A DNA stretch of 62,146 bases, filler included, from Dugesia japonica (taxonomy: Eukaryota): the NCBI GenBank assembly GCA_001938525.1. It is 6 parts of 6 records of this genome, joined end to end, with 100 filler letters (N's around TTAATTAATTAA, not from the genome) between each part and the next. Parts side by side here need not be neighbours in the genome. Positions count along the whole stretch, not along the records: positions 32,362 to 41,223 come from MQRL01631077.1; 5 more parts are not named here. One strand, given 5' to 3'. Below the pieces are notes generated by a model. The model was not told the origin of the DNA, did no database searches, and saw only the letters and a list, made by a program, of their open reading frames with translations. This document shows, in pieces, positions 3,101 to 46,179 of the stretch. Numbering within the stretch: position 1 is the stretch's first letter; the number at the start of each line of letters is the position of its first letter. Made by a program: the position numbers and the translations under genes.

Positions 3101-4215
3101 AAGCCAGTAAAACTTGGGGAAGTTTGGCACGAGTAGTAATGAAAATACTGCTAACTCTGGAAGAAAACTTGGCATTATTGAGACATGATAAAGTCATACA
3201 ATTAATCCTGAAGTTAAATCAGTTACGAGCTATAAGTCGTATGCCCGAAGATGTGATAAATGCAATATTAACTAAAGCGGTTCGAATGTTAACGAATGTG
3301 GCCGTCGACATAACAATCAAATTTNNNNNNNNNNNNNNNNNNNNNNNNNNNNNNNNNNNNNNNNNNNNNNNNNNNNNNNNNNNNNNNNNNNNNNNNNNAT
3401 TTATGAATCAACAACATAGCCTTGACAAAGAGGAAACCGGAACACAACCATTACTACAGGAAGACGACATAGTACTCTATTATAACCAAGTAATAGAACC
3501 AGACCAAATGAGATTGCCAATGAAATATATGGGTGTTTGGCCAGGAACTAAATTGAAAATTTACGTAACATCAAAAGATGAGGAGAAACGACGACCACGG
3601 GTCTCAGAAGAAAGATGGAAACAAGAAGCCAGAGAAGTAGTGGAATATTATTTAGAGGAAATACATCCACTGGTGTTCGCAAGAGCCAAACTCCCTAAAC
3701 AAGAACAGAAGAAACAACGAGTAGAGATGGTAGCAGCTCTGACCAACACACCAGTTAAAGATGAGAAGCCGGAAGACAACTTACCAAAGTTATTCGAATT
3801 GCTAGTGGGGGACAAACTAATAAAACCAGAAATCATACGGCGATCCAACATAGTCTTACAACAAGATCTGACAGTAGAAGACCTCAAGAAACTACAACGA
3901 TTAATTATGGCCATCAAAGTATCTCATGTATGGGATCCCATTCAATTCAATAAAACTTTGGTTAAATGGAGTAAAGCGAAAATAGGACAAGCCACTCCGT
4001 TGGAAATAAAATTCAGAATAATCGATCCGGAAGGAGATAAAACTACGGTTAAGATACCAGTATATAATACGGTAAAACACTTACGAGATAAGATACCATT
4101 TAAGCCAACCTACAAACTCCTGGACGATGATGGAATAGTCGAAGATACCACTTCAATTGGACTAATGAAAATCGATTTAGTTAAACCTAATACGTTATGG
4201 ATTTTTCCAGAGTGA
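145..4215 (+). pseudogene. Tandem-repeat protein with six ubiquitin-like (beta-grasp) domains separated by helical bundles
   Basis: One frame broken by stops at 376 and 2068 and by N gaps. Recurrent motifs are HIYDFGVKPGED / HIFQCHAKPGEI / HIFLHDIKPGEV / HLMNIGLRPGEN / MKYMGVWPGTK and YWMIMNRI / YWKMMNNL / FWKAFNLL, with a period of about 600-730 nt. Confidence 0.65.
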
Positions 4216-4934
4216 GGTACACTCACTCGGAAAGACGCAGATCCGTATAAGGCAGCAGATAAAACTCGACCGATAATGGGGGAGACCTCAGACATGTTAA
4301 AAGAATATAAACATCGAACAGAAATTGCAGCTAGTCAAATATTAAGACCGACAACAGATCAGTCCGGAAGTACATAAGTATCCCGAGAGATATAAAAAAC
4401 CCCTTAAACAAGCCAGGATTGGGAAGGTGAAATATTCGGATCACCATCAGCAGACGAGTTAGTGGAAAATGAAAACGAATTACAAATTACAAAGTACTCT
4501 CCGCCAGTTAGAAAAAGTGAAGAAATAAAGAGCAAAGAGCTGACAAGAAGTAAGAAATATGGCCCTAGCAAAGTCGACTTAGATGAGGAAGATATATTAG
4601 AAGAACAACCACTGTCACCAATATTGAGCAGAATAGCAAAATAATTGCCAGCTTCAGTTATGGACGATTTAATGGATACCAATCACCCCTTAGAAATGGA
4701 AAATCTTATAGAGACAGAAGAGGAGGAAGTGCCACCAAAACCANTGCGCACCCGAGTAGATGCGGAAACAATTACTGAACCTCGTAATAGAGGTTGACCA
4801 AGAACAAAACGCCCAGGAAATCCTGAGGAGGAAGAAGCATTAAAACAAAAACGATTAACAACATCAATAAACCATCAAACTGAGCGATTAGCAACAGTGT
4901 CACAGGAAAGATATGAAAATTCAACGGATGAGGA

Positions 4935-5345
4935 TATGCCTACAGAAGTAGTAATACGGCAACTATTACTAATGCTTTACCCGGAGCTAAAGATATGGAT
5001 TGGTAAATTTCAGCTATCTGATAGTCTCCGACCACTAGTCAAGGAAATAGAAGCAGCCATTAAGAAATTTCCTGCTACTAAAGGAACTAGTCATGGTACA
5101 AGAGACAATCTAGAAGGGGTAATGGATGAGTTGTTACAGGATTCACCAACAAAAGGAAGGATATAGTAGTATCGATAGCCCATTTAATCAATCAAGCACA
5201 CCTATCAATCGCTAGAAGTAAGCCGTCAAAAAACTTCATTCTTAGTAAATTACCGATAGTGGAACTCATACAAAATAAAATCATACCTTTGATAAAACAA
5301 CAAGGAGGATGGAAAAAATTTATTGAGTTCATATGCCCTAAGCCA
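4935..5345 (+). pseudogene. Bcl-2 family-like domain (one frameshift)
   Basis: BH1-like VMDELLQDSPTKGRI/VVSIAHL spans a frameshift at about 5163. BH2-like LIKQQGGWKKFIEF is at about 5287-5330 and BH3-like LSDSLRPLVKEIE lies upstream, all at Bcl-2-like spacing. Confidence 0.7.
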
Positions 5346-5460
5346 CAGCCATCACATAAAAATGTAACGAGAGTAATAAGGATTGTTCGGGAACAACTAA
5401 ATGAGATCGAGAATGGATGGACGCGTGGACCTCGAGGAAATTCTTGGCAAGCATTAACCA

Positions 5461-7400
5461 ATACTCTTGTTATTCCTAATGATGGGCAGAAGTGAAGCCA
5501 TTTTGGCCTATGACTGCGATGGGATGCAAGTTGAGAAGGAAGTCTTCTCATTAGTAGATACTGAGGAATGTCCAGACGCAAATCCGGAGAAAATTTCACT
5601 CCGTAATAATTCGGTGTACCACTTATATCAGGAGTCAGATTATTACAAGGCTCAAGTGCGTGAATGTACGGTAACCGTAAAGACATTTATATTTCATTGT
5701 GGTTACCACAGTAATACCTCGATAATCGATCCAGGAATCATAAGACATCCGGTACATCTAACGGGAAAACAATGCGATGAAGGATTCACAACTGGTAAAA
5801 TTACTATCAAACATGGAACTCAGGTTGTCGCTAAAAAAGAGCATGTAATTGATCAACCAATAGAAGCAGCCGGAAGTATATCGTCACATAAAGGTAATTG
5901 TGAATATGATACAACCACTATAAGTGGAAAAGTATGGCAATATGCGGTAGCAATCGAAACTTATACGGTGGAACTCAAAGAATACGAAGCATTTTTTGAC
6001 ACCCAGGATTGAACTATGAAAGGAAGGTCATACTGCAAAGCAGCAGATGGAGCATGTAATACAGGTTCGTCAACATTAACATATAAAGTAGATTACCAAG
6101 ATTGCAAGTTAGCACACTTAAAAGAAGCAGTGTTTGACGAATACCAAGGACAACGTGCTATAACACCTATTGATCACGATACAAAGGAGAGTAATCTGAA
6201 AGATAGGATAGATAATTTTAAAGAAACCATAAAATCAGGCCCGAGGTCATACAATCAACAATGGCACACCACACCTACGGTGCTAATGTCCTCAGAAAAG
6301 GATGAGACTATCCGATTAATCAAAGGAAACTCTATGTCTAAATGCGGGCAAATAGTATATAAGACAAATTATAAANGAATATTCGTATCGAAACATCGAA
6401 TAAAAACAGCCCAAGCCGCAGTGATGACCCAAGACTTCAAACTGCACTTATATGCTAATAATAAAATGGACAACTTATTCCACCGGATGCAAGATACTAT
6501 TGGATTGATGTACCATGACCTCATACAAAATGATTGCACCTTAAATAAGGAAATACTGAAGACGAAGTTAGCAATGGCAGTTACGAATCCAGATAGTGTA
6601 ACTCCGTTAATTCCGTTAGAAAAATGATAATTTGGTCGAGTGGTAGGTGAAGTAATGTACCTATACAAATGCAAAGCAATAGATGCGGAATTTTCATCTA
6701 ACNCAAAACCTTGTTACAATGAGATAGAAATCATCCACAACAATGAGAAACGTTATGTACAACCGATTACTCGAATAATATCACCATTGGGATATAAGTC
6801 AAATATCATAAATTGTTCTAATGTATTTGGACCACAATACATAATGACGGATGGTTCATGGATAAGATTTCCACAACGAATGGCAGTAGGAGTCGAACCA
6901 CGGAAATTCTCAATGTACCGATTAAATGGGGGGATGCAATTTACCCCGATCGATGTAAACAAAGGAGGAATTTAAAGCAGAGAAGATCTAGAGAAAGCAA
7001 GGGAATATATGTTGTTCCCAGTCCGAAGGATGCAGATCCTCTCAAATATCGTACAATTAACAAGTGGAACTAACATAGACGGACGTGTAAATTACGACGC
7101 ACTTTTGTCAGCAGATCATTTCCAGAAAGCCACTGAAAACGTCATGCGGAAAATGTGGGGAAGATTTATAAAATTTGGCCAAGCAATGGCAGGATTGTTG
7201 GGAGTCATGCTGATAATTTCAGTAGCACGAGTAGTAATTACCCAGTTGTTTGCATGTTTCGACATATACAAAAGGGAAAAGAAAGTGAATTGGAAACTGG
7301 TAACCAGAATATTCCCTTTCCTAGCAAAAACTATGGTGCTTAATAGTCACTCTAAAGATATCGACAGAGTAAAACGATTTATTCGGAAACTCGGACAAAT
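5461..7400 (+). pseudogene. env: Envelope glycoprotein, class III fusion type (chuvirus/Monjiviricetes G-like, herpes gB-related)
   Basis: Signal-like ILLLFLMMGRSEA followed by AYDC, a Cys-rich ectodomain with HCGYHS, FGRVVGEVMYLYKC, PCYNE..YVQPITRII..NCS and GGI(Y), then a TM segment FGQAMAGLLGVMLIISVARVVI. In-frame stops at 6010, 6625/6628 and 6973. Confidence 0.8.
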
Positions 7401-7984
7401 CAGAGGATCAGACAAACAGGTCATAATGCAACTCAGATTATTGTGTGAAGAAATGAGCAATGCTAAAAAGAAAATATCATATTTCAATCAATTCAAGGAA
7501 AGATTTAAGAACAAAAATGAAAGTAGTAGCGGAAGTGATGATGATAGAGGAGGAAGCAGTGGAGTACCACATGTACCTAGTTATAAAACTGCCATGGAAT
7601 ATGACGCAGAATTCAAAAGGCAACAATATGAAAAAGTCAGCAAAATGCAGCGACTGAGAAATGCATTGAAATTCGGAGGAAACGAAAATACTCCAGCACC
7701 AGCACAAATGTACTATAACGCTTACCCGCAACACGGTTGGCAACCTATGAGTCAAAAACCACCACAGGTATGGGCACTAGGTCCCAAATATAACACTCCT
7801 TATATAAATGCACCACAAGCCCCTAATATGGCATTATTAACAGAAAATAATTTGGCAACCATTGACCGAAGGGTTACTGAACAAAACTTGCACTCCCCAA
7901 ACAACCGGATCACTGAGGACGATAAATTAGAAACACACACTGTGTGTATGATGATTTCTCAACGAGCAAAATTATTACAAAAAA

Positions 7985-9710
7985 GAATTAAAATAGATGG
8001 GAGATGGGTGATAGCTATTATACAGGAGCAAGTAAGACGTTAGTCCACAAAACAGTATTAAAAGATTATCGACTACTCCGGATAACCATTACTAAAGGGG
8101 TTATCATCACCGCTTCAGGAGAAAAGATCTCACCTGTTGGGGTAGCAATATGTGCAGTGGAGAGTGACGGATTACGCCTGTGGCATAAGCTACAAATAAT
8201 GAACGAATTAACCTTTGACTGTCTTATAGGGTTGGATCTCTTACCACGCATCTGTCCAGAAGGAATTTTTGACTTAAGAAAACTGACGATACGGGAGAAT
8301 CATGAACACGAATATACACTAGTAGGGTATCATAAAACTAGAGTAATAACTAAACAAAAAAGTCCACAACAATGGAATCAGCCAACAACCAATCAACAAC
8401 CACGAAGAAGCAGAGGTGAGCAAAATCCCTCAAACTCCGATCCTGGGAAAACTACCGATACATCCACCATAATACAAGACGATTGGATCAGGTTCCAAGA
8501 ACGGGAACCAAGATGGAAAACCAAAAAACCACCTAACTCCAACCATAAAACTACAGACGTGGTATGTGCAAGTCTCAGTGGCGGACCAGTATTAACTATC
8601 ATGGGTAAAATCAATGGTAGACCTACAACTGCATTATTAGATACAGGAGCAACCATCTCGTTGTTATCAATAGAAGAAATTGCAATAACAGAATATAAAA
8701 ACATATTACCTACTAATACCACGGCAGATGTGGCGAACGGAAGCAGTTTCAAAATTTTCGGGGAACTAGCTTGCGAAGTAGAATATCAAGATAACAAAAT
8801 TAAACACAAAATGATAATAGTGGAAATGGCGGGACAATGCATCTTGGGTACGGATATTCTCCCAATTTTGATGAAAAACGGCATTCTAAACTTTTCCACT
8901 TTACAGTTGCAATCTTTGGAAGGTTATACACATGTTAAAGATCATGAAGTATTTACTACCNNNNNNNNNNNNNNNNNNNNNNNNNNNNNNNNNNNNNNNN
9001 NNNNNNNNNNNNNNNNNNNNNNNNNNNNNNNNNNNNNNNNNNNNNNNNNNNNNNNNNNNNNNNNNNTACCTACATCAGGAAGGTTAACTACGGTCAATAA
9101 AAGTGGAGAAGTACCGGTTAGCTTGGTTAATTTTACTGAAAAGGATATCAAGATCAAGCCAAATTCCAGAATAGGCACATTAACACCCATTGAACCAGAA
9201 ACCAATGAAATTGAGGAAATAGTCGTTGAACCAGTAATCGATAGAACATTAAAAGTGGAAACAGAAACACTATCGGATGATCAGAAACAGGCAATATTAC
9301 AATTATTGGAAGAATTTAGGGATATCTTTGCATGGACTGATGAAGAGCTAGGTATGTGTACCGCTACAATGCACACAATTCTGTTAACAGATGAAATCCC
9401 AAGCAAGCAGAAACCGTATGCCATGTCGATGGAGAAGAAGGAATTTGCGAATAAAGAAACAGCTAAATTAGTGAAAATCGGAGTAATAGAACCCAGTTGT
9501 TCACCATGGCAATCGCCTGTGAACCTCGTAGATAAAAAGGTTGGGACACAGCGATTCTGCATCGATTACAGACGATTAAACGCACAGACTAAAAAGGATA
9601 CATATCCACTACCAGATATCAACGAATTACTTCAATTACTGTGTAACGCCAAAATATTCACTACGTTGGATTTACGAAGCGGGTATTGGCAAATACAAAT
9701 TAAACCCGAA
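7985..9710 (+). pseudogene. pol: pol: two retropepsin proteases, dUTPase-like region, N-terminal half of reverse transcriptase
   Basis: PR1 is RIKIDGRWVIAI/(D)TGASKTLV...DCLIGLDLL with a frameshift at the catalytic Asp. PR2 is ALLDTGATISLL...ILGTDIL. The dUTPase-like stretch is SGEVPVSLVNFTEKDIKIKPNSRIGTL. RT motifs: SPWQSPVNLVDKK, RFCIDYRRLN, TYPLPDI, LDLRSGYWQI. Confidence 0.92.
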
Positions 9711-9796
9711 AGAAAATTAAATACTAAAGAAAATGGGATAAACCCGAGAATTTTTGATAATTTTTGAAAATTTTTTCTTCTCAAATCGTAACAAAA

Positions 9797-22763: not shown

Positions 22764-22918
22764 TGTTATCTAATATCAATAATTAAAACCTAAATTTTGA
22801 TCTAAGCTTTTATATTAANNNNNNNNNNNNNNNNNNNNNNNNNNNNNNNNNNNNNNNNNNNNTTAATTAATTAANNNNNNNNNNNNNNNNNNNNNNNNNN
22901 NNNNNNNNNNNNNNNNNN

Positions 22919-25900
22919 GGTTGTGGAATAGATTTTATTGAAAATGGAAAAATAACATCGGTATATATTGGATGACTAATTTTATATGGACTTTTAGAGT
23001 ATATTCTGAATCTGTTTTCAATAGATGTATCAAAATCTGGAACTTCGTATTCGAAAATATTTCCTGGCAAGTGAACTATAGGTATCCAGTCCTTTGTTTT
23101 ACTTGTCCATTTTTCAAGAACAAATGATTGTTGTGGTTGATATTCATAGCTTCCGGGCATTTCCCACATTACTTTAAATGGTTTAACAGTTTGTGATGGA
23201 TAAATATTAATAGGTTGAACTAAAATATCTTTCTCTAAATTAGGCATTTCAATTGGTGCTGATCTTGCAGATGAACCACAACCCTCAGAATTAAATGGTG
23301 TGATTTGTACAACCCAACTGTGATCAGGATTTAATTGTGGAAGTATACACCGGTTTTCATTAGGACCGATTGTTGCGATACTTGTTTCTTCTCCTGTTGT
23401 CAAATCTAAAAGTAAAACTTTATAACCTTTAATGGGTGATCCTCCATCATCCATTGATTTAAACCATTTAGCAAATAATCCAAATTCTTCTGGTTCCACT
23501 CTTACATTTAATACAGATAATGGTTTTGATAATTTCATTTGTGGTTTGACAGAGCGGTCCATTAACATGGGCGGAAGGGCTTTGCCAGATTTATCATATG
23601 GAATAACTCTAATCCATATCGGAGTGTCTGCATTCAACCCATACATTAAATGATTTCGTTTAGTTCCTCTAACATCAGTTTCATATTCCCACTTTTTGAG
23701 ATCAGGATTCCATTTTTCAACTCTGAATTTATCGATTTCTGTTGTTGGGATGTAGTCATTCCACGAGACTTCTAAACTGGCTGAAGTTAACGGTTTAACA
23801 ATTAAAGGATTTTGATTTTTAAGTTCTATTTCTGTAACTGCAGTTGGTTTGGGATAATACTTTTCTGATTTTGGTAAACCATAACTTCCATAAATGTATT
23901 CTTTATCTATCCAGGAAAGATTTTCCGGTTTCAAATTATAATTCAAACCAGGACTAGAACTGTAATCGGGTTTGAAATTATTATTATAAAAGTTATCTTT
24001 TTCATATGATTTTTTAATTCTTGGTTCGAACTTTAAAATATTCTNNNNNNNNNNNNNNTCTTCATGTTCATCATATACATTGGGTAATCTAACTTTTATT
24101 GGCAAACTTCTTAAATTATTAGTGTCATCATATACCGTCAACTTTAAATCTCGAGGTTTTCTGTTTGACAACAAAGATAAAGGAATACTATAAGTACTTA
24201 AAGAATCTGGCAAATCAATAACTGGTTTCCAAACATTTTCATTGCAAATTTTTTCTTCAATTAAAACATGGCGATTAGAAGTATCTAATTGATTCGGTAA
24301 ATTCCAATTTAAATCGAGGAATTCATGCTCTTTATTTAATCTTAATTTGAAATTTGAAATCGGCGCCAATGGTATTCTTTCAGAAGTCAAAACTGGATTC
24401 GGTAAATTTCTTGGTTCACTAATTGCGTCAGGATACAAAGCTGAAACACGGAAATCATAATATGTGTTTGGTTTAAGGTTATCAACAATATATTCAACTG
24501 GCTTTGATCTATCTTTATCCTTTGGTTTGTAGGTGAATTCAACTGGTTGCCAATTATCAGAAGAAGAACTGAGATTTTTCTTTTCAACTTTATATGATTG
24601 AACATCATTCGAAGATGGAGAAATCCATGATAATATTACTTTATCATCATTAGGTTGTTTATTTATTGCTTTAAGACCTTTAATTGATTCTGGTTTTATT
24701 ACTTTAACAAAACTCTCCTCGCTAATTAATGGTTTACTTAACCCATTTGCATTTCTTGCAAACACACGAAAAAAGTATTCTTCATTTGGAAGAATATCAC
24801 TAAATATTGCTTCAGTGTCTGGAATTTCTAAATAAGATTTCCAAGGTCTTCCTCGTCTTTTAAATTCAATTTGATAACACGTTGTAGGTAATCCGCCATC
24901 GTCAATAGGAGGTTTCCATGAAATAACACAGTCACTATTGACAGGTTTCATTTTTATCGGTCCTCTTGGTTGACTTGGGACAGTCGATTGTTTTTTCGGT
25001 TGAATGGAAAATTCGTTTTCTAAAGGCTCTGATATTCCATTTTTATTTTCAGCAACAATTCTAAAATTGAATTTTGTGCCTTCCAATAAATATTGAGCAG
25101 TAAATTCCAAAGGTTGACCAATAATATTGGGAATTTTTCCAATTTCTTGCCAACTTGTACGAAAATGTTCTCTTTTGTAAATTCGATAAGCGGTAATTGG
25201 TGTGCCTCCATCAAATAGCGGCTTTTTCCAAGCTAATACACAACTATTGTTGTCAATATCGGTAATAATGAGAGGACCTTGAGGAGCAGTTGGTACAGCT
25301 GAAAATAATATAATTAAATANNNNNNNNNATTACATTACATAAAACAAAAACTATCAAAAAATATAGTTCAACATTTCCATTTTATTTACTTATTAATGA
25401 AGGTTGAATATTAATTATATGATTAAAAAGGTTTTATTAAGATTATGGAAATAAAAGAAAAAAATATTCCTTGTAATTTGAATCTAATATAAAGTGGTAA
25501 CGTTGACCGTAAACCTTTTTTACATACATACAAAAATATAATATAAAAACAATTCAAGACTGTGATGATGAACACTAATTTCAAAAAGTTTGGTTTAAAA
25601 CATTAGTTTATTAACAATAACCATGTAACAATATCTAAAAATTAATAGATGACCTTTGACTAAATTTCTTTCTTTAAAAGTCAGATAGGGCTTCAAATCC
25701 ATTTCGAAAATGAAATGAGTAATTCTCGTCAAACAAATCTAACAGTGATTATATGATGGTTAAGTAAAACTAAAATTACATTTACACGTATAAGAAAATC
25801 TGATATTAAACTTCATATTAAAATAAAATTGAGGAAAAATGTATTTCAAAGTAACTCAATATCTATTTAAATATTAATTTTATAAATTTTCTCTAGAAGA

Positions 25901-28543
25901 GACAGCGGACCAGACTTTAGACAATCCTGAACTAAGCCGATTATTTTCAGACACTCTTTGTAAAGAGATGAGTTTTATACAATTATTATCCTTTGATATT
26001 AATTCGAAATACACCCTCTATTTACTAAAAAGTATGAAAGATTTAAGAAAACCGAGTAAAATTTAAAACCAACATAAACACAATAAAAATATAATGATTT
26101 CTATGAATTGCAAATCACTCCACACTTTTACTTCGACTTGGAGAACGTAAATGGATTCGCAAAGGAGCGTAAATCCATTCCAAATTTTATCTTTCTGAAA
26201 AATGGCAATAACCCCTGATCATTGAAATAAAAAATTCCAAAATGTATCTGATTTTTCGTAGCAATGAATTTTTATAAGTTTATTTATTAGAAATGATTAA
26301 TTTTGATAAAATGAAAGCTAACTTGTTACTAATTCAGGGGATACCGGTTCAAGTGTTGATACAATATCCCCGATTCCATATTGATTTACTCCAGCTACTC
26401 CAAAGTAATATTTTTTATCTGGTGATAAATTACCAATAGTAATTTTGTCGAGATAATGATCAACATTAGATATTTGAACCCACTGAGAATCAGGTTTATC
26501 TTCTTTCTGATAAATTAAGTAGCTATTAACATGATGTTGATGTTTCTGGCCATGTTTACACTCATTTGGAATTACCCATTGTATAGTAACACTAGAAGAT
26601 CCTTTTCCAATAACCTTTACCCATGCAGGAGCATCAGGAGCGAAATGGGCTTCTTCAATTGAGAAATCGTCTGATTGTAGCAATTCTCCAGTTCCATATT
26701 GATTTGTTGCTGAGATACAAAAATTATAAATTTTTCCTGGTAGAAGATTTTTAGCACGAATCGAATTTTCCCCATATGGTACTCTGCCAATTTTATACAT
26801 AACTGGACTATTTTTATATTTAATGAAACAATTAAAATGCGAAATAGGTGCATCTCCTTGATCAGTTGGATTTTTCCACGATATCAAAACTGAAGTGTCT
26901 GTAAAATCATTAAAATTTATTGGTGGATTTGGTTTATCTGGTGTACGAAATGGATTCACACAAACAATAGGTTCAATTGAGCATAAAGGAGAACTTTTTC
27001 CTTGATCGTTTTCAGCAGTTACTCTAAAATAATACTGATTACCCGGTTTAAGATTTTTTGCAACATAATTGCATGTTTCGGCATTAGGTGTGCGGCCAGT
27101 ATATTTCCAATTTATCCCATCAATACTATGTTCAATACTGTAACTTGTTGGGTTTCCGTGTAAAGATGGTTTCCATTTCAATTCAATGCTATTAAAAGAA
27201 TCACATGTTCCAACTAATGGACCAACAGGCTGAGACGGTATAATTGGATGTGTTCTCAAATTGAAAGGATTAGAATATAAAAATGAACCTGGTCCTAAAG
27301 AGTTATGTGCATTAACTCTGAAAGAATAAATTTTATCTGCATCTAGAATAGGAGTATTAAAAAATAGGTCGCTGGCTTTGCAATTTCCGAGATTCTCCCA
27401 GTCTTTATTATTGGTTTTTATTTCAACATCAAATTTATCAATTAACAAGCCACCGTCATCAAGAGGTAAATTCCACGATAAACGTAAATTATTATCTGAA
27501 GTCAATAAAAGTTTCATTGGACCTTCAGGAGCTGATGGTACTTTCTTCGGTCTATTAAAAGAAATAGATTGTTCAGATTCCAACCAATCACTTGGGCCCA
27601 CTTCATTAACTGCTTGTACTCGGAATTTATATGCATATCCATCTTTTAAACCACCTACATCATATTCAAGATTATCATTTTTTAATCGAGCAAGAGGAAT
27701 CCAGTCATTTTTCCCTCCAACTTCCTTAATTTGCAAATTGTAATTTTCAATAGGTTTGCCACCATCTAATTTTGGAGTTTTCCATTGGACTTTTACAGAA
27801 GAACTATCAAGTGATGTTGAAATCAAGGGTCCTTCGGGTTTTGACGGACATTCTGAAACAAAAAAAAATAATGACGTTACAAAAAATTTCCAATTTTTAA
27901 GTTAAATATTAATTTAAAAGTTTCTTACCATATGGACTCTTCAGAATAATCGGATTCAGAGCATTCAAATATTGACCTTCTCCGTTAATATTAGAAGCAC
28001 ACACTCTAATTCGGTATGGAACACCTGGAACTAATCCTTCGATAATACTTGATGTATTTATTGGATTTATTTTTATTGGTTGACTAAATCGATTTTTCTT
28101 CTCATCTTTATACTCTAATAAATAGTTTCTTAAAGGTTCATCGTGATCAGAAATTGGGGGTTTCCAGTTTACTTTCACGGAATTTGGCGAAACTTGACAC
28201 AACTCTAACGGTCCTTCCGGTATGTCAGGAACATCTGTTACTTGAAGATTTACAAGCACTTCATTCTTTCCAGCTTTATTAGAAGCTACAATTGCATAGG
28301 TTCCAGTTGAATCTTGTTTGACATTTGGTAAATTAACATAATAATTATTTCCATATTGTTCAACTTTCAACGTTTCCAACGGAATCGATTTTATGGGTTT
28401 TTTGATTATTTCTAATATTGGCTTTACATCTGATTGAATATATAAAGGAACTCGCAAATTTGAACCAGGACGAATTTTAAAATCTGAAGGCCCAATTAGA
28501 GATATTTCTGGTGGATCTGTTAAAAAGAAAAATTTATCACAAC

Positions 28544-28608
<65 letters not shown>

Positions 28609-28658
28609 NNNNNNNNNNNNNNNNNNNNNNNNNNNNNNNNNNNNNNNNNNNNNNNNNN

Positions 28659-28694
<36 letters not shown>

Positions 28695-30055
28695 CATGAA
28701 TTCTTAAATTTCACTTACTTATTGCAATTGGTACTGTTTCTTTAATAGCTTCTTTATACTCTCTAAGTTGTTCAATCAAATCTTTAGGACTTTTTAAAGA
28801 TTCAGAGACTTCGGAAACAATTTTCGGTTTTACCGCTTCTAAATAAATGTTTATTATTATTTATTTTAATTATTACACCCAATACCCTGTTTTAATATAA
28901 TCCATTCAGTTGGCAATGATGGTGCACTTTTACCATCGACATTTTTAGCCAGTACTCTAAATTGATATTTACATTTATTATTCAAATTAGTAACATTTAA
29001 ATAGGGTGTTTTGATTGGTTGTATTGTTATGGGAGTCCATAAATTCGTCATATCATCTTTTTGCTCTACAATAAACATGATAGGTGATGTAGTGGTTGTT
29101 TGAAGTGGATTCCACTTTAAATGAACCTTGTCCAATCCAATATCTTTTACTATTAGGTTTTCTGGCATAGATGGAACATCTGTAAAATATATCTATTCAT
29201 AAAATAATAAAAGACAAAGACATACCAATTATTTGTTGCAAAGAAATAGGTTGGTCTATCTCTACAAATTCACTTTTACCGATAGCGTTTTCAGCAGCTA
29301 CTCTGAAACTATAGGTTCCGTTAGGTGTTAAATTAAATACGTTTATATTATATTTTCTATCCCCAGAAGTTGTTCCACATCGAGTCCAATTATTGGGACT
29401 TGAACCGATAATTTCACGCTTTTCAATTATATAATTAACTATTTTTGAACCACCATCGTTAGTTGGAGGGCTCCACTCAACAATAGCACAATCAGACATG
29501 TTAGAAACTGCTTTAGCATTTTCCGGCGGAAATGGTCTTGTGAGAACATTTAAATGAATTTTAGCTGAGTATCGACCTGCTGAATTTTCTGCTACAATTT
29601 CATAATCACCGGCATCTTTTGGTGTCGTTGAATCAATAATCAAATTATATTTGTTTAAAGATTTTTCATTTAATTCATGTTTGTTGGACGATGAATCAAT
29701 AATTTTATTATCTTTCAGCCATTTAATTTTACATTCTGGATGACCTGTAACTGTGGCTGATAATGTTGATTTCTGTAATTCAGGTATTGATAATCCCATC
29801 GATGTTTTACTATCCAATTTAATCGTAGGTTTTTCTGAAAATGTTATTAAAAATTTTTGATTACATAAATTTAAAAATTTACCTTCTATTTCAACTTTAC
29901 ATGAAGTTTCAGCTTTCCCGAATTGATTTTCTAGTTTGCATAAATAAACACCTTCGTCATCAATCTTACATTTTTCTAATGTTACTGAACTTTGATTTTT
30001 TCCCGAGTTTACTTTTATTTTAGTCAAACCTCTGATAACTCGATTGTCTTTCAAC
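22919..30055 (-). CDS. Twitchin/titin/projectin-like Ig and fibronectin type III repeat muscle protein, partial, multi-exon
   Basis: Repeated Fn3 motifs (WxPPxxDGG, YxFRVxAxNxxGxS) and Ig motifs (DxGxY). Inferred exons with GT-AG boundaries: 29883-30055, 29226-29834, 28886-29179, 28719-28838, 27929-28516, 26323-27852, 22919-25298. Confidence 0.9.
28544..28692. repeat. (AAT)n microsatellite in an intron
   Basis: Directly visible; contains an N gap. Confidence 0.95.
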
Positions 30056-30306
30056 CTATTAAATAATAAAGTCACAAATACAATATTGTATTATCCAGAC
30101 TTAAACTAATCTAAAATCTCATCTTATTAATAGAAATTTTTCAAAAATATTAGAAAATTAAAATATGAAACCTTTTCATTCAAATTTTTACAAATTTGTA
30201 TCAATTTCTGTTTAGAAACCATTTACCATTAAACATGACAACTGTAATTTCACCAGTTTTTACATTAATTATTGTTTAATCATTCTTAGAAATTCTTGCT
30301 TTTTAA

Positions 30307-32361: not shown

Positions 32362-34234
32362 TATGTTTATGAAGTAGATTTAGAATATCCACCTGAGATT
32401 CATGAGAAAACAAAATATTTTCCATTAGCACCAGATAGAATAAATATTACACAAGAGATGTTAAGTAATTATCAAAAGAGTTTTAATAGAAAATTATCAA
32501 AGAAAAATGAAAAGCTAACATTAAATTTTGGAGATAAAGAAAATTATATATGTTTAGGAAGTACTTTAGATTTATATTTAAAACTTGGAATGAACATTAA
32601 AAAGATTCATAATAAATATAAAATGCCAGTAAAAACATGGTTAAAAGATTATATATTATTTAATATTGAACAAAGAAAAATAGCTAAAAGAAATAAAGAT
32701 GAATTTGGAGATTTCTTTTTTAAATTATTAAACAATTCATTTTATGGTAAAACATTAGAAAATATTAAGAAAAGATGTAATGTTAAAATTGTAGCGAGAG
32801 ATGAAGACATTCAAAAGTTAGCAAGTAAACCAACATATTTAGGATGTAAAGTGTTTTCAGAAAGATCTGCAGCAATACATTTAGAACAAACTAATTTAAA
32901 ATATGATAAATAAGTTTCAATATATAGGTTTCACAATTCTTGAACATGCGAAAGAAGTAATGTATGATTTTGTATATAATCAATTAGATCCTTTAATTGG
33001 ACATGATAATTATAAAATACATTACAGTGATAGTGTAACATTNNNNNNNNNNNNNNNNNNNNNNNNNNNNNNNNNNNNNNNNNNNNNNNNNNAATTAGAT
33101 CCTTTAATTGGACATGATAATTATAAAATACATTACAGTGATAGTGTAACATTTGACACTCCAATAATCTTAAGGAAAAATAATAAAGTTGAAATTAAAA
33201 AGATTTCAGAAATAAATCAATCTTACATAAAAAATTATTATAATGACAAATATTATTCTTATCCTGAAAATTATGAGATATGGACAAAAAATAATTGGGT
33301 TAAATTAAATAAATTAATTAAGCACACGATAAATAAAAAGATGTATAGAGTTAGAACTAAAATGGGGATTGTAGATGTTACTGAAGATCATTCATTATTA
33401 AATGAAAATGGATAAGAAATTAAACCGATAATTTAACATGTGAAACTAAATTATTACATAATAAAATTAAAAAGTTAATATCTTTAAATAAAAATATTAC
33501 ATGTGAGATTTTAAATAAAATAATTATAGATAAAGAATCTTTAGCCAAAGCATATTATTTGGGAACACTCTTAGAAATGAATTTAATTATTACAGAAGAT
33601 TTAAAACTTGATGAATCAACTTAAGAAATTGAAACTAATATGCAAAGTGTAACATTTTTAAGAGAAAGTATTGAAGATGTATATGATATCGAAACTGAAG
33701 ATGGATCATTCAATTGTGGATTTCATTTATTAATAAAAAATACTGATTCTATGTGTTGAGATATTTGGAAGAGATAATTTAGAAAATTTAAAATTAATAT
33801 TAGGAGATGAATTATTTCAGATGAAAGACGAAATGCCTAATGATGAAATATTAAAATTAATTTGTTTAAAAGCTAAATCATATGCTTTTGAATTTAATAG
33901 AAATGAATTAATAAAGAAACATAAAGGTGTTCAACAATTTAATAAATTTCTTAAAAGTGATTTTGAAAAAGTTATATACGATCCAAAAGAAACAGTATTA
34001 GGTGAAAATTATTCTATTAAATCTTTCTTACATGATTTAAAAATTAATCAACAAAGTAAAATTGCTTTCACTGGATTTGATGATAAAAGATTAATTGAAG
34101 ATAATGGAGAAATAACTTATGGTCATCATTTTAGATATTATTGTGAAAAATGTAACTATTATCATTTAATGTTAAATAAAATTAATAACATTTTAATTCC
34201 AAGAAATAATTCACCATGTATATTTTTCTTATAA
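32362..34234 (+). pseudogene. polB: Polinton/adintovirus-type family B DNA polymerase, C-terminal half, intein-containing
   Basis: YEVDLEYP..IH..FPLAP, FFKLLNNSFYGKTLEN, IGFTILEHAK, split YSD|TDS, MKDE, LKAKSY, HKGV, FDDKR. Confidence 0.9.
33143..33741 (+). other. Mini-intein (Hint domain) in PolB motif C
   Basis: Block A SVTFDTPII, block B VDVTEDHSLL, block F DVYDIETEDGSF, block G LIKN|T. About 200 codons with two stops and one frameshift. Confidence 0.9.
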
Positions 34235-34249
34235 GAAATGAGTGGAGAA

Positions 34250-35660
34250 ATGGATAATCTATTTCTATCTTTCTTTTTTAATATGAATTAAACCACCTCT
34301 AGATACGTAATATGTAAATGTTACTGCATTATGATTAATATTAATGATGTTATTAAATCTTTAATTGTAGAATAACCTCTTATCTCCAAATAAAGTTTAG
34401 TATTAATATTTACTGTTAAATTAATAATAAATGGTTCATCGAGACGATAATAAAATTTATTTGCAATTTTTACCATTTCTTATAAAATCTACATTAAGTA
34501 TAGATATTTCAGATGGAAAATAAAACCCTGGTAAATCCCCATCTTTGGAATGAGGAATGAAAATATTAAATATTAAATTAGAATGAATATCAGTAATTAT
34601 AAAAGGTAAGTAATTATCAATTAACACTCTTAAACTTTTATGTATTGATTCAGAAAAGGTTTCTTTATATTGTTTTAATAAAAAATAAATTCTATCCCCC
34701 AAAAGTTTGTGTAGTCTTGGTTTTATTCTTTCAATTTCATCAACAATTTTTAATTTTAACAAATTAACACTTAATTCATGTAAATAAATTTTTTTTGGTA
34801 AAATTATTTCAACATAGTTTATAATACTATCTTTATTAATTTCACTGCTTTCATTGTAAATTTTTATATTACTATCTCTAGGTGTATTTTATGAAAATGA
34901 TTGTGTAAAATGATTAATTTTAATGATATATGTAAATTTTTCAATTTCACAATAACCCTCTATATTTATACAAAGTTTTTCATTAATGTTTGCATGTAAA
35001 AAATAGAAAAATATCTTCAAGATAGAAATATTGTTTAGTTTTCAAAGTTTTCATTTTACCCTTTCTTTCAAAATCTAAATTATATACATACTTATCCATA
35101 ATAGAAAATTGTGCAAGAATTTCATAATAGATAATTGGAAATATTATGATAACACTAGTCCTAAAAACATAAAGTAAGTAATTATCAATTAACCCTTTTA
35201 GACTTTTAAGTGTGGATTCGGAAGTATTTTCTTTATATTCTTTTACTAAAATATTAATTCTATCAATAGAAATTTTATGTAGTTTTGGTTATATTCTTTC
35301 AATTTATTTAAATATTGCTTCAGGAATTTTTATAAATTCTATAGTTAAATTATGTAAATAAATTCCTTTTGGTAAAATTATTGAAATAAAGTTTATATTA
35401 GTATCTTTATTAATTTCGGTGCTTTCATTGTAAATTTTTATAATATTATCTCCATTACGTTTAATATATAAAAATGATGATGAAATTTTATTAATTTTAA
35501 TAGTGTAATTAAAAAAATTAATTTCACAATAACCCTCTATATTTATAAAAATTTTTCATTAATCTTTGTATGTAAAGATATAAAAAAGGGTTCTTCAAGA
35601 TAGAAATGTTGTATATCTTTCAAAGTTATCATTTTACCATTTTTTATAAAATCACCTTGA
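34250..35660 (-). pseudogene. Unknown decayed ORF(s) made of diverged tandem units of about 585 nt
   Basis: Unit starts DFIKNGK / DFERKGK / DFIRNGK near 35655, 35075 and 34490; IERIKPRLHK..LIDNYL occurs twice. Confidence 0.55.
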
Positions 35661-38600
35661 ATTATTTCAGAATTCGGCATTTCATCCTTCATCTGAAATA
35701 AATTATTTCCTAATATACTTTCTAATTTTGTTAAATTTTCTCTACTTTTTATCTCAACAAAGATACAGTCAGTATTTTTTAGAATTAATGGAAATCCACA
35801 GTTAAATGATACATCGCTTGTTTTAAACTTTCTCTTAAAAATGTTATGCTTTAAACATTAGTTTCAATTTCTGATTTTGTTTCTGTAAGTTTAAAATCTT
35901 CTGTAATAATTAAATTCATTCCTAAAGATGTTCCCGAATAATATGCTTTAGCTAAAGATTCTTTATCTGTAAATGTTTTATTTAAAATATCATCTGTAAA
36001 TGTTTTATCTGTAATAGAGAATATTTTATTATGAAGTAATTTAGTTTTACTGTTTACATCTGTTGGTTTAATTTGTTCTCCATTTTCATTTAATAGTGAT
36101 TCCCATCTTTGTTCTCACTCTATAAATCTTTTTGATTGTTGAATGTTTAATTACTTTGTTTAATTTACTTCATCCACCTTTGGTCCATATTTCATAATTT
36201 TCTGGATAAGAATAATAATTTACCATCAATATTTTTTGTGTAAAATTGATTTATTTCTGAAATCTTTTTATTATAAATTTATTATTCTTTCTAAAAATTA
36301 TTAGAGTGTCCTTTGTCACACTATCACTGTGATGTATTTTATAATTATTTTCTTCTATTAAAGGATCCATTTTATTGTATATAAAATCATATATTACTTC
36401 TTTAGCATGTTCAAGAATTGTGAAACTTATACAAGGAAATTTATTATATCTTAATTTGCCTTTTACCATATGCATTGCTGCAATTTCGGCTTCGTGATTA
36501 TCATTTGTTGTTAAAATTTTACTTGATTTAAAATTTATTTTAGATGCAAATTTTTGATAATCTTTGTCATTGTCAACTATTTCTATGTTACACCTATTTC
36601 TAATATTTTCTAGTAATTTTCGATAGAAAGCATTTAACATTAATTTATAAATATAATCACTGAAAACATCACTATTTATTTTAGCTTCTTTTCTTAAAGC
36701 TAATTATTTATGAACATAATCCTTGAACCATGGAGATGTTCTCATTAAAATTGTCTTGTGTACTTTTATTAATTTCATTCCAAGTTTTAAATATAAATCT
36801 CAAGTGGAACCTAGAAATACATATTTTTTCTTATCAAATTGATTTAGTGTAAGTTAAATATTATCTTTGGATAATTTCTTATTAAAACTCTTTTGATAAT
36901 TACTTAACATGTCTTGTGTAATATTTAATCTTTCTGGACATAATGGAAAATATTTTGTCTTATCATGTATTTCTGGTAGATATTCTAGGTCGACTTCATA
37001 AATGTAATTCATTGTATCGTTTGCTTCAGTATAAATCAAATCTGTGGATTTATACATTTCCCCTGTTGGTAACGGTCGTGTCATGCATGCTCCATATAAA
37101 CTGTTTTGATCAATATATTTAATAAATGTTTCTTCAAATAAACTTTCAATATATTCATCGGGAATAAACTCATGTATATTCATCATTTCTATGAAATCGT
37201 CATACTGTCGTTTATTTAATTTTCTATTTACATCTCGTAATTTATTATAACTAAATACTTGTCTTTGACCTAATTCTCCAGAATATCCACCTCTAATACC
37301 TTCTTCAACTACTAAGAAAGTATCATAAGTTTCGGATTTCACATATTTTAGTTAAACAGCCGCATTTAACATTCCTGTTTCCAAAGCATATCCTGGTGCT
37401 GAATATGAATAACATGGATCTAATCTAAGAATATTATTTAAACATGAATCACGAAAGTTTTCTAAGAAATCTGCAAGGATTAAAACATCAAGTTTCATAT
37501 AGTGCATAATGTAATCCCACATGTTATTGAAATCCTGAGAGACGTCATTTAGAAATGCCGCATATTCTTCTTCACTCATTTCTTTTTGTGTAAGTGTATT
37601 GAAAAAACTTGTCTCGTTGGAATCGTATCGGATTTTAACAATTGTTCTACATCATTAATATTTAATCCTTTTACATACTCATATGGAAAATGTGCTTTCT
37701 TTGGTAATATATTAAATGAATTTAATATTGGATAATTACCTGATTGTGTTAATAGTTTTCCCATTACTTCTATTGATGTGAATGGAAGTAATCTTGCTGA
37801 ATCCAGAAATCTAACATCTTCATATTGAAATGAAATGTAATTATCAGTGGCGTGTGGTATTATTTTTTTTACCTTTGATGGAAATTTTGTCAATAATTCT
37901 CTTAAGAATAAATGGTTATCATATCCTGATGCGTATTGAAAATAAAATAGTATAAATAAATGTTTGTCTGATAAACGATCATTTATGTTACATCATTTAC
38001 ATCATTTACATGACCCACGAAATTCTCCATTAAAATGATTATGATCTTTTACTGGGGTTCCATATAGTTTTTTCTCACAATATCTACATTTTGTGTCTGG
38101 TGTAAATTCTGGATGATTGGTTTCTGTGTATTCTTTTATTAATTTATTTTCCTTAATATCTTGTAATTTATTATTAATATCTTCTAAAAACGTAAAGAAA
38201 TCTCTATAAATATTTTCACCTGAAAATTAGTAATATTTACTTTCAAATAAATCTGTGTAATCACTTTGAAGATAAATAACTAATGATAATGCTTTTTGTT
38301 TTTTAGCAAGTGTATCTGTGTAAGCCTCAAAATCTCCAAGAAGTATAAATGGAATTTTATTTTTTTGATAATGCTTTTTAAAATAATAATAATCTTCATA
38401 TTGAAAAAAAAATGTTATTTGGTTTATGTCTAATGCTCGCTTCTTGATGATTCATTAATAATTCTTCACTGGAATAACATTTCATACATCGGATACATGG
38501 ATAATTTCTATTTCTATTCGCAGCGAAAAATGCACCTAAATCTCTACACAAAATATAATGATCCTTATACACTAAAAAATTACATTTAATTCCTCTGGTA

Positions 38601-39661
38601 ATGGTTTTCTTGTATTATAAGAAATGTGTTATGGTTCAAGTTTTTTTAGTAGCATTTACTCCATATACATTTAATTGAAAGTTATTTAAATTCTCGAAAT
38701 TTTTTTATATAATCAATATTCATAGGAAATTTAAATCCATGATATCTTAAATCTGATAAATAAGGAATGTATTTTTCTACTCGTGTTGGATGATCAACTA
38801 CATATTTATGTGCTAAGATTGAATAAAGAAAACATTTATTATCTTTATTTTCTATGTTGATTACACCTGGTTTATGAAATGGTAATTTGCAATATGTTGC
38901 TCTACCTAATGAACGACATTTACTTAAATCAATTTTATAATCCACAATTTGCATCATTGTCCAACCTGATCCTTCATCTTCAATATATCGTTGTAATTCA
39001 TTAAACATTTCATTAACACCTTTTTCTATATCATTTTCAATTGTAAATCGTTTATTGTTTGTATATGAAATAAATCTCTTTCAACATTTTCACTATTTAT
39101 TTCTTTTGTATATTTACATTTTACTGTCATACTTATAACAATTCTTTTCCATAGTTAAAATATTTGGTAATGATTTCTTTTACTTCATTTTGAAAGTCAC
39201 TAATTTCTCTAACTGGGATTATCTATTATTTCATCTACATTTCTTTTCATTAACACTTTACTTTCCTTAAAATATTAAATTTCAAAATCCTTATAAATTC
39301 TAAAAATATCTCTAATTTCTGGATCGAAATCAATTGCTTCTTCACCAGCTAATTCTCCAAATAAAACTCTATTTACCTTTTCTTTATGTTTGTCAGAATT
39401 TAAATGTGTTTTTGCATGATTTTGTCTTGTAAACCGTTTGTTACATATTAAACAACGTAATGGAACAATATTTAGATTTCCACAAACTGTTGAATTTAAA
39501 TGTTCTAGTAAACCATTTTCTGTTATAAATGATCGATGACATATTTCACATTGAAATGTTCTTTCTTCTCTGAAACAAGTTCGAGATCTAACATGTCCTA
39601 TTAAACCTGCTAAATTTCTAAACAACTTTCTACAATTATTACATCTTATTATATCACTCAT
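35660..39661 (-). pseudogene. polB: Second Polinton/adintovirus-type PolB ORF: C2H2 fingers, GSGW domain, endonuclease VII-like Zn motif, 3'-5' exonuclease and intein-containing polymerase
   Basis: Three C2H2 fingers (39275-39661), GSGW..NKCFLYSILA, CRYC..KDHNH..GEFRG, SGYDNHLF, FLDS, FPYEY, DVLILAD..ENFR, GIRGGYS, YIDQNSLYG, HSD|TDC, MKDE; many stops and frameshifts. Confidence 0.88.
35774..36322 (-). other. Mini-intein, second and more decayed copy
   Basis: HSD|SVTKDTLII ... SFNCGFPLILKN|TDC; deletions remove most of block B and part of block F. Confidence 0.85.
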
Positions 39662-40059
39662 TATCTATAGAAATAATGAAATCATACAGCTACTAAAAAG
39701 GGAAGTAGAAAGATAGTGGCGGGCAACCTCTGCACACATGCGGTACCCCTACCCCCGACGTGATGAGATTATTACATAACTGAGGTTGTATTTTTCTAAT
39801 GAAAATAGGCGGTGGCACACATTTGTGTGCGTAACATAATGTAAATAATCTTGTCGCGATAGAATTACGTAAGAGAGGTTACTTTTTTCCTGTGTATTTA
39901 GTTAGGAAAAATTATTTGCACACAAATTGTGTCATGAGATTAATTTCATCGGTGAAATTTTACGTAATAGGATTAAGAGAGGCTACTTTTTTCCTGTATT
40001 TAGTTGGTAAAATTTTTTATGGGAATTTTTTAAAGAATCCGTGCAAATTGTTCATTTTG

Positions 40060-41223
40060 TTTAAAAAAATGAAAATTTAAAAAAATTTTTAAATCAAACT
40101 TCTATGGGAATCAGAGAAAATATCTGAAATTTCGAAAATTTTTGAAAAAATTTTTTGTCGAGATTTTTTACATCAATCGATAAAGAATTTGATGGAGATT
40201 ATTTTTCACAAATAAAAATTTTTCGAAAAAATTATTTCNNNNNNNNNNNNNNNNNNNNNNNNNNNNNNNNNNNNNNNNNNNNNNNNNNTTTTTCACAAAT
40301 AAAAATTTTTCGAAAAAATTATTTCTCATCTTAAGATAAAATAATCATGGTTATTAGATAGATAATTCTTTGCTGATTCTAAATAAATAAACCTTACATC
40401 GCCAAAATTTATCCGGAATGAAATAAATAGGGTTTTGTGCTGAAAATTCTCAAATTTTGAATCTTCGTGCTCAATTTCTCTTCGTACATAACTCGTAATG
40501 TTTTGAATTTAGTATTATTTTACTCAGGAGGAAAACGTGACTGTACAAAGTTAAAATATCGTCTCGCGAAAAATTCTTCCTAACGAAGATATTCAGGTGT
40601 CCTCTCGGATTTGGTAACTTTTTTCGAAAATTTAATATGTATCTCAAAATTGGTATCTATTAGATAGAGAATCTTTTACTGATTCCAAATATGTAAACTT
40701 TAAATCGTTACATTTTATAGATAAAAAGTAATATAGAAAAACATGTACTTCATTTGTGGGAGTCCGGAAGGGAATTATGAAATTGTGAAATAGTAACTCG
40801 AATTTGAACATCAAAGTATCTATTCGATAGGGACTTTTATTTGGAGTAGGAAAGACATGGTTACAAATCATTAAATCTTGTCTGGGACTAAAGAAAATGG
40901 GATAAACCTAAGATTTTTTGACAATTTTTGAAATCTTTTTCTTCTCAAATTGTGACAAAACATACATTATTCGATAGAGAATTCTTTACTTATCAAGGAA
41001 AACATCACTTAAAATCACCAAACTTAATTTTTACAAAGTAAATTCGAAAAAACATAGTCAAAAATCACGATTACGCTAAATCGAAACAAATAAAAAGTTA
41101 TTTTTTACAATTTTCATCCAAATTTAATGATCCAATTATTATCAGATAAAGAATTTTTTACTGATCAAGAATATATACGGTAGAAATTTGTCAAATTAAA
41201 TTACTTTGAAAAAAGTTAAAATT
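40060..41223. repeat. Dispersed AT-rich repeat with internal subrepeats; related copies at about 9720-9796 and 14690-14890
   Basis: ACTAAAGAAAATGGGATAAACC..TTCTTCTCAAAT is shared with 9723-9796; ATAGA(G/T)AA..CTGATTC recurs. Confidence 0.65.
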
Positions 41224-44954: not shown

Positions 44955-45908
44955 TCAAATAGTTACATCATTTGAAATTGAAATAATTTTCTCATTTTCC
45001 CATAAAAATCTATTAATAATTTGTCGGCGAAATCGTTTAAATAATATGAAATAAGAAATTGGTGTTATGATTGTTAATAAAGAATATAGATCATACCAAA
45101 AATATGGTAAACATTGCAAACCAACTAATGTCACATTTATTGAAACAAGTAGATTTCTAATTAAATCAATTAATAAAACAACAGCATAAAATACAGTTGA
45201 AAAAAATGTGGTTATAGAAAATTTATAGAAAAGCAAATTTCGTCGATGAATTATCGATTTATTTCGTAGCAACATTTTATTTTTAGAATTTTTCAACAGA
45301 TTTCTTGCCGAAAATATATTAAAAATAAAAAGACAAGTAATTGGTATTGCAAAATAGAAAGTATTGTAAAACACACTTGTAATTAATGTTAGCTGGTAGG
45401 AACATGTAAACGTTTCTGTATTGTTAATTTTAATTATTTTCACATCAAAAAATTCATAAAATGTTCCCATAAATCCGGATAAAATACTTACTGAAATCAC
45501 TAATTTAATAACTTTACTTTTCGTAAAACGTTTATATAACATTGGAAAAACAATACAATAAAACTGGTCAAATGATAATAATATTATCATATAAATATTC
45601 ATCGATATCAAACACCAAAATGCAATCATTGTATCCCAAAAAAAACAATAAAATCTAGCAAAATCTACATCAATTGTTGATAATGATGGATCTTCTTTGA
45701 AATAATACAAGAAATATATTGGTAAAATTATAACTGCCATTATCGTTCTGGTTTTCATCAACAACATTGGATTGAAAGATAGGATTCTGTGTTTGATTAG
45801 AAATCTCAGAAATTCTAAATTGATTAAAAAATAAAAAACAATAAGTAAACTTCGAAATCCAAATAAAAAAAAGTTGTCATAACAATCTTTATTCAAAAAG
45901 AATTTCAT
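44955..45908 (-). CDS. Intronless divergent rhodopsin-like (class A) 7TM GPCR
   Basis: 317 aa with multiple hydrophobic segments; TM3 LSFDQFYCIVFP (DRY variant), ECL2 Cys, TM5 YFAIP, TM7 TPISYFILFKRFR (NPxxY and helix 8 variant). Confidence 0.8.
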   Translation of the reverse strand: MKFFLNKDCYDNFFLFGFRSLLIVFYFLINLEFLRFLIKHRILSFNPMLLMKTRTIMAVIILPIYFLYYFKEDPSLSTIDVDFARFYCFFWDTMIAFWCLISMNIYMIILLSFDQFYCIVFPMLYKRFTKSKVIKLVISVSILSGFMGTFYEFFDVKIIKINNTETFTCSYQLTLITSVFYNTFYFAIPITCLFIFNIFSARNLLKNSKNKMLLRNKSIIHRRNLLFYKFSITTFFSTVFYAVVLLIDLIRNLLVSINVTLVGLQCLPYFWYDLYSLLTIITPISYFILFKRFRRQIINRFLWENEKIISISNDVTI

Positions 45909-46179
45909 CGAACCGTTTAATACATTTATTCAATATGGCAAATTGTATTTTGTATTTATAAATTATTTTCTTTTATAATCATTGGCCGGTTAAATACTAG
46001 AATAATTGAATACAATTCTTTTCAAAAGCAATTCTATTTGTTAATTAAAACAAAAAAAATGAATGAAAAAAATATTGTTTTTAATTTAAATTAGTTTTTC
46101 AATATACAATAGTTTTTTTCAAAATTTTAATTCATTAAAATAAAAGAGCCGATCAAAATTTTTTTTTGTTTTTGATAAT

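Follow-up and report, generated by a model that had tools for sequence, protein, structure and literature searches.

The catalytic motif C of a Polinton-type DNA polymerase pseudogene in Dugesia japonica is split by an insert that we interpret, with a probability of roughly 0.8, as a decayed mini-intein of a Polinton intein lineage whose members occupy the same site in several polymerases and are likely capable of both homing and self-splicing. The insert lies in a 62,146-nt stretch of DNA from the assembly GCA_001938525.1 (the window), made up of six parts joined by filler. Its features are collected in Table 1 with those of a second copy, absent from the earlier note on this DNA, which is inverted relative to the first and 2 kb away.

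Table 1. Coordinates of the two polymerase copies, their inteins and the adjoining features, counted along the window
Feature	Position	Strand	Remarks
N-extein of copy 1, Polinton-type pPolB polymerase domain	32365..33042	+	motif B LLNNSFYGK; PF03175 E 1.1e-5
50-N overlap gap	33043..33092		exact 61-nt duplication on both sides (32982-33042 = 33093-33153)
YSD part of motif C ahead of the insert (N-terminal splice junction)	33134..33142	+	
Insert (intein), whole	33143..33741	+	599 nt; starts SVTFDTP, ends LIKN
N-terminal splicing region of intein	33143..33430	+	Ser1, block A, block B TEDH (33380-33391); TIGR01445 39.5 bits
Short linker, remnant of LAGLIDADG domain edges	33436..33621	+	~150 core residues missing
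C-terminal splicing region of intein	33622..33741	+	block F VYD (33679-33687), terminal Lys-Asn
C-extein, Thr+1 (TDS at 33742-33750) and remaining polymerase	33742..34231	+	stop and frameshift ~33757-33766
Tandemly duplicated frame between the two polymerase ends	34311..35653	-	~577-nt period, 73% identical
Second pPolB pseudogene, longer	35640..39664	-	C2H2 fingers, exonuclease with endonuclease VII-like insert, motifs A-C
Second mini-intein copy	35774..36322	-	same short linker as copy 1
Very high-copy repeat upstream of copy 2	39726..40238		summed depth >10x polymerase bins

The intein is positioned between the Asp and Thr of YxD/TDS. The earlier note had described motif C as split into YSD and TDS by an insert of about 200 codons, and both this interruption and the Ser at position 1, the TEDH and VYD motifs and the Thr at +1 that it listed are recovered here. 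The 61-nt duplication flanking the overlap gap includes the extein-intein junction, which is therefore seen on both sides of the gap. Residues 2-86 of the insert match the TIGR01445 intein_Nterm model well above its cut-off (39.5 against 24.5 bits, E 8.5e-10), thereby answering in the affirmative the profile search proposed as a check. The insert further matches 134 of 282 candidate proteins at E<=1e-3, the 120 listed being mostly intein-bearing polymerases and topoisomerases, and its best match in the PDB is the Neq polymerase split intein (E 2.2e-5). A profile built from the natural family matched 4 of 1792 six-frame fragments of the window, every one of them inside the insert or its second copy, and the C-terminal region aligns with the relatives (family profile match E 1.3e-7). 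The Pfam Intein_splicing model stays below its cut-off on the insert fragment (E 0.05-0.06), and no intein model of Pfam or NCBIfam matched the C-terminal piece; the Pfam intein model scores above its cut-off in three of eight proteins scanned (P0023, P0005 and P0137).

The residues with assigned roles in class 1 splicing (PMC4031507, available text) are represented in the insert by Ser1, the block B Thr and His, the block F Asp, the terminal Asn and Thr+1; among those named in that text, the penultimate His alone is missing, with a Lys in its stead. This substitution, already pointed out by the earlier note, is common within the intein family: a pattern search of 436 proteins extracted 264 inteins, 130 of them ending in KN and 119 in HN (the family counts of Ser1 and Thr+1 were excluded as evidence, as the extraction pattern itself demanded both). 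The penultimate His is a common assisting residue rather than an obligatory one, and Lys is ordinary for this family. Judged by its sequence, namely the cut-off pass and the Ser1, TEDH, VYD, Asn and Thr+1 signature, the insert is a class 1 intein, and its alignment with relatives marks it as a mini-intein of 198 residues (breaks read as X) that has lost the LAGLIDADG core and retains a remnant of its edges. The claim that LAGLIDADG motifs are absent accordingly holds for the catalytic core and fails for this short remnant of the endonuclease edges (the KESLAKAYYLG region). In an intact relative, P0008, the fold predicted with a 46-row alignment (pLDDT 82) matches intein-homing endonucleases (TliVMA, E 2.4e-15; PI-PfuI; PI-SceI) as well as giant-virus polymerases, and a Hint fold is predicted to be present there. 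A spliceosomal intron was rejected, since the insert encodes a Hint domain and the relatives are in frame; a Hedgehog-type Hint domain was likewise rejected on account of the internal position, the terminal Asn and the existence of empty alleles.

Copy 1 of the intein and its polymerase is a dead pseudogene. The reading frame of the insert is broken three times, by stops at 33413 (in frame) and 33622 and by a frameshift near 33430-33436. The polymerase, too, is damaged on either side of the insert: a frameshift near 32910 affects the N-extein, whose left end abuts a scaffold gap, and the C-extein is broken near 33757-33766. The second polymerase copy shows 72-75% DNA identity to the first and ends shortly past motif C; its mini-intein is the more decayed of the two, with several stops and with deletions that take out block B and block F residues. 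The polymerase to which the exteins belong is protein-primed and of family B; it has C2H2 fingers at the N-terminus as well as an endonuclease VII-like insert, an architecture that we take to be the type found in animal Polintons and adintoviruses. PF03175 was matched on both copies (below the cut-off on fragments), and the exteins give strong tblastn matches to full pPolBs bearing PF03175 and PF02945, which upholds the earlier identification of the gene as a Polinton/adintovirus-type DNA polymerase. A Pfam scan of the window frames detected no capsid, integrase, packaging ATPase or protease gene at this locus, a fragment bounded by gaps, and the label 'Polinton' is therefore carried by the polymerase alone. 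The duplicated frame that joins directly onto the truncated end of polymerase copy 2 has no convincing Pfam match, and the high-copy repeat on the other side of that copy is possibly an element end.

The mini-intein belongs to a multi-copy family of this animal species. The species was examined in three DNA runs, one from each of three studies. In every run, roughly 30,000 contigs match 32362-40238 and roughly 2,500 match 33093-33880, and as many as about 70 different contigs carry a variant at a single position within the insert; the summed depth, which is not a copy number, is high over the splicing regions and low over the linker. The insert is skipped in six of the nine contig joints listed, and the three skipping joints with readable letters (short sides of 20-27 nt) run on into TDS or TDL; they therefore represent empty sites of related subfamilies in this species. 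Two RNA runs cover the insert with almost nothing (one read in one, depth <=0.5 in the other). It is exceedingly unlikely that the DNA lies outside the animal's chromosomes and that scaffolding drew it into the assembly from a contaminant, a free virus or a resident protist. The stretch is indeed bounded by scaffold gaps and filler joins, and no unbroken path within the window leads to the titin-like or 7TM host genes; contamination is nevertheless unlikely because dozens of variants per position along the 7.9-kb stretch and intein-free sites occur in all three DNA runs. Moreover, contigs of 331 and 281 nt from two studies match 34171-34549 with zero differences at low depth, and both copies are pseudogenes with host-like base composition. 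The argument made earlier against a contaminant was based on pseudogenisation and shared host repeats: the former stands, but the link to host genes within the window crosses scaffold gaps, and the case is now carried by the sequencing runs and by decay instead of by the flanks. Elsewhere in the window we observed a degraded LTR retroelement (379-9767, + strand) with a gB-type fusion gene (PF24664) upstream of the protease and RT, an arrangement corresponding to the GAG-ENV-POL order reported for nematodes, bryozoans and flatworms in the available part of PMC13524379; a titin/twitchin-like array of Ig and Fn3 domains with long frames (22867-30090, - strand); a rhodopsin-family 7TM frame (44955-45929), which like the titin/twitchin-like array identifies the window as animal DNA; and an identical 12-nt filler with stops in all frames between 44-N runs, at 9841, 22863, 32306, 41268 and 50324, marking artificial joins.

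The two window copies bear on whether the short form was ever active. In the N-terminal splicing region they differ at 26 of 87 third positions as against 24 of 172 first and second positions (p=0.002); in the linker the differences are spread evenly across codon positions, and the C-terminal splicing region shows no significant excess at third positions (p 0.18). The excess in the N-terminal region fits selection on splicing after nuclease loss. Alternatively, the short form may never have functioned, the deletion of the endonuclease being part of the decay of a dead element that was then passively copied. No intact mini-intein was seen, both copies are full of breaks and the unbiased linker would agree with this; we nonetheless consider it improbable, given that copies about 25% diverged share the same short linker with a gap-free 184-nt block, that their breaks fall at different places, that the splicing region shows the third-position excess, and that the frameshift and second stop of copy 1 are missing from most contigs at those positions. 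Returning to a mini-intein that once spliced, its activity would have been needed for as long as the element was alive, because the intein separates the catalytic aspartates of motif C: the unspliced polymerase would be inactive, and the standard four-step class 1 reaction would rejoin YSDTDS.

Inteins at the same site were found in other Polinton polymerases, namely P0023 (a 136-member cluster), P0008 (121), P0012 (41), P0002, P0005, P0180, P0182, P0183 and P0199, with P0137 also among the full-length Polinton relatives. These inteins are in frame with their host polymerases, measure 337-354 residues where complete and contain both LAGLIDADG motifs (Pfam LAGLIDADG_3 or Hom_end), with GFFxxDG and GFYxxDG motifs and their acidic residues in all nine of the aligned full-length Polinton inteins; set against them, the window intein is short of about 150 residues of the nuclease core. 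Motif scans, one of which came back empty, recovered PolB loci of the giant-virus type (L002-L004, L006), prokaryote-labelled loci and a 4.2-kb contig (L005, the same as P0002) carrying a Polinton-type polymerase only, and protein-seeded locus scans for the full-length relatives gave no related locus and one weak, irrelevant match (L001). Contigs of up to 1 Mb suggest that the full-length carriers may be chromosomally inserted.

Occupied and empty alleles coexist within clusters of 90% identity. A clean empty allele, P0127, matches P0124 in 25 of 25 positions around the site and in 561 of 567 upstream. The P0023 cluster has 136 members, of which 15 were listed and 14 compared; one of the 14 does not extend to the site, seven are occupied and six empty. 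The empties are 95-99% identical upstream and 91-96% downstream, yet only 14-16 of 25 residues agree at the site itself, which occurs in three variants, one with a Cys replacing the motif C Thr. From this protein comparison, the divergence of the site fits either co-conversion during homing or resistance of the empty sites. Overall, 77 empty pPolB sites were counted; together with P0127 set against P0124 and P0008 and with the empty sites of this species, they mark the intein as a precise insertion when compared with intein-free forms of its host protein. The distribution is patchy: on a tree of N-exteins (94 rows kept out of 115 once near-duplicates were removed; 14 occupied, 80 empty), whose sampling is biased by the use of P0008 as the query, intein presence changes eight times, at least seven of these being forced by strong branches and all falling in one 35-row clade; the nearest extein relative of the window is empty. 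The search for other alleles advocated by the earlier note has thus produced intein-free ones, both at contig joints of the same species and in related Polinton polymerases, and no intact one of the mini-intein, both window copies being broken.

In the intein tree (37 of 60 rows kept after removing long branches and near-duplicates), all nine Polinton inteins form one clade (support 100/99), within which the window intein is sister to that of P0199 (98/96); its best match is likewise a Polinton intein (58% over 104 residues). P0199 is a pPolB (PF03175), and its exteins gave no tblastn match to the window and no significant blastp match to P0127. As they are unalignable with the polymerase class of the window, the intein must have crossed, in either direction, between distant Polinton polymerase classes; a tree that separates the window from P0199 is not rejected by the AU test (p 0.10). 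The immediate source of the window intein was most likely another Polinton. A giant-virus mini-intein that moved directly into this Polinton lineage, independently of other Polintons, is a highly improbable source: the BLAST neighbours after P0199 are giant-virus-type mini-inteins in PolB and topoisomerase II, and natural versions of 200-260 residues are common there (66 of 264 are under 270 residues), but the best match, the tree sister and the well-supported clade all point to Polinton inteins, the linker aligns to the endonuclease edges of these inteins, and an endonuclease-less mini-intein has no obvious means of homing. The direct jump from a large DNA virus into this element postulated earlier is thus not supported in view of the nearest relatives, and neither is the order proposed with it, the intein arriving first and endogenisation following.

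As to the source of the Polinton intein clade as a whole, an origin from giant viruses is favoured, being the best tree under the Asgard root: with two archaeal inteins as the root, the Polinton clade falls within the giant-virus-type inteins (a label resting on similarity and a few names, P0248 and L002), in none of 200 bootstrap trees was the giant-virus group split off by a single branch, and the clade is sister, at 86/93, to a group including Mimiviridae sp. ChoanoV1. A rather unlikely alternative is that the clade is an old sister lineage or stems from archaeal or cellular polymerases; giant viruses might even have received the intein from Polintons. Same-site members of the family do occur in Asgard and Thermoproteota PolB, in phage PolB and in the Pol delta of Anaeramoeba; a tree holding the giant-virus inteins together is not rejected (p-AU 0.09), and with a long-branched Thermoproteota intein as the outgroup the root is drawn inside the Polinton group. 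Against this stand the nesting under the Asgard root and an FNCGF end signature shared with some giant-virus PolB inteins. Kinship with the giant-virus and archaeal PolB inteins of the pol-c site, as claimed at the outset, is supported by both the matches and the tree, and the suggested comparison with NCLDV pol-c inteins comes out in favour of nesting under that root while leaving the alternative tree standing. FastTree placed three phage inteins together with the Polinton clade, a grouping that was set aside, as these inteins show only 30-36% identity to their nearest neighbours, none of which is a Polinton intein; one of the three, kept in the later tree, fell elsewhere.

The wider family includes several further members. 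Type II topoisomerases (P0001, P0010, P0017 and others) harbour it at D/TDG, a look-alike of the polymerase site, which suggests non-allelic homing, and phage-type family B polymerases (P0069, P0088 and P0089; phrog_262) carry a divergent member at D/TDG. PolBs of a Promethearchaeota (Asgard) member (L009), an uncultured archaeon (L013) and a Thermoproteota member (L007) have the family at motif C, two of them full-length and one mini. Four MAG contigs labelled as bacterial (L008, L010, L011 and L012) encode giant-virus-like or eukaryote-like PolBs with this intein and are probably misbinned.

Together, these observations can be arranged into a scenario in which the lineage would have made a single entry into Polintons, probably out of a giant-virus PolB when both occupied one host cell, and would have moved at some later time between two classes of Polinton polymerase that are very distant from each other. 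The LAGLIDADG endonuclease of the full-length relatives would cut empty sites, whose repair would copy the intein in. Both window copies share the same shortened linker; the endonuclease may have been lost once in their ancestor, after which the mini-intein would have spread passively as the Polinton multiplied in the animal lineage. The window would then capture the late stage of this cycle, i.e., nuclease loss, passive amplification with the Polinton and decay, the last of which is observed in both copies. More tentatively, at somewhat under even odds, we propose that a full homing cycle of invasion, endonuclease loss, decay and re-invasion runs among Polintons in animal nuclei, with full-length inteins cutting empty motif C sites, jumping between polymerase classes that share little else and driving target-site resistance. 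If so, Polintons would constitute the first reservoir of inteins in the animal germline and would offer inteins that already function in animal cells. Because some clusters contain both occupied and empty alleles and the empty sites vary, homing and target-site resistance are open to direct testing.

The finding concerns an intein amplified in an animal genome, though its carrier is a virus-like element rather than a gene of the host. Protein-primed polymerases and Polintons thereby join the known hosts of inteins, and the lineage can be used to trace genes moving between Polintons and giant viruses as well as among distant Polinton classes. A motif C insert of about 340 residues breaks the YxDTDS motif used by Polinton surveys, and such elements may hence be under-counted. 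Inteins are stated to be absent from metazoan genomes in the available portions of PMC5784728 and PMC8529194; the former lists 67 viral DNA polymerase inteins, those of large eukaryotic viruses including Iridoviridae, and inteins receive generic mention in the parts of PMC12220804 and PMC3671162 at hand. The word 'intein' is absent from the main text of a nematode Polinton survey, and searches of the openly available literature turned up no paper describing a Polinton polymerase with a Hint-domain intein. The intein family and its insertion site are thus already known, and what is new is the Polinton host element and the animal genome setting.

Among known systems, the closest parallel is offered by the pol-c inteins of giant-virus (Nucleocytoviricota) PolBs, such as those of ChoanoV1 (P0248), Megavirus courdo11 and Heterosigma akashiwo virus 01, which sit at the same YxD/TDS point with Ser1, Asn and Thr+1, share the SVTxDTP start, the VDVTEDHSL block B and an HN or KN end, and are 41-45% identical to the full-length Polinton inteins; in contrast to these, the host here is a protein-primed Polinton-type polymerase, and the intein belongs to a clade of its own and is multi-copy in an animal genome. 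The archaeal motif C PolB inteins (Neq, PDB 5oxw; L009, L013 and L007) are similar in sequence, and the three loci share the site, but they reside in cellular RNA-primed polymerases, and the Neq intein is split whereas that of the window is contiguous. In Anaeramoeba, a protist, the nuclear Pol delta gene (P0102) carries a member of this family at the equivalent position. Intein-bearing endogenised giant-virus polymerases are described from the nuclei of Klebsormidium, Tetrabaena and a labyrinthulomycete in the available text of PMC10710043; those are giant-virus genes in algae and protists, whereas the present case combines an animal with a Polinton. Finally, HNH and VSR endonuclease inserts occur in Polinton pPolBs (bioRxiv 10.1101/2023.08.22.554363; PMC11071308; both in excerpt), and the excerpted text of the latter suggests that such inserts stem from intein invasions. 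As selfish nuclease domains in Polinton polymerases, they resemble the Polinton inteins; unlike them, they are described in these excerpts without a splicing domain, whereas here a complete Hint domain lies within the catalytic motif and is accompanied in the relatives by LAGLIDADG.
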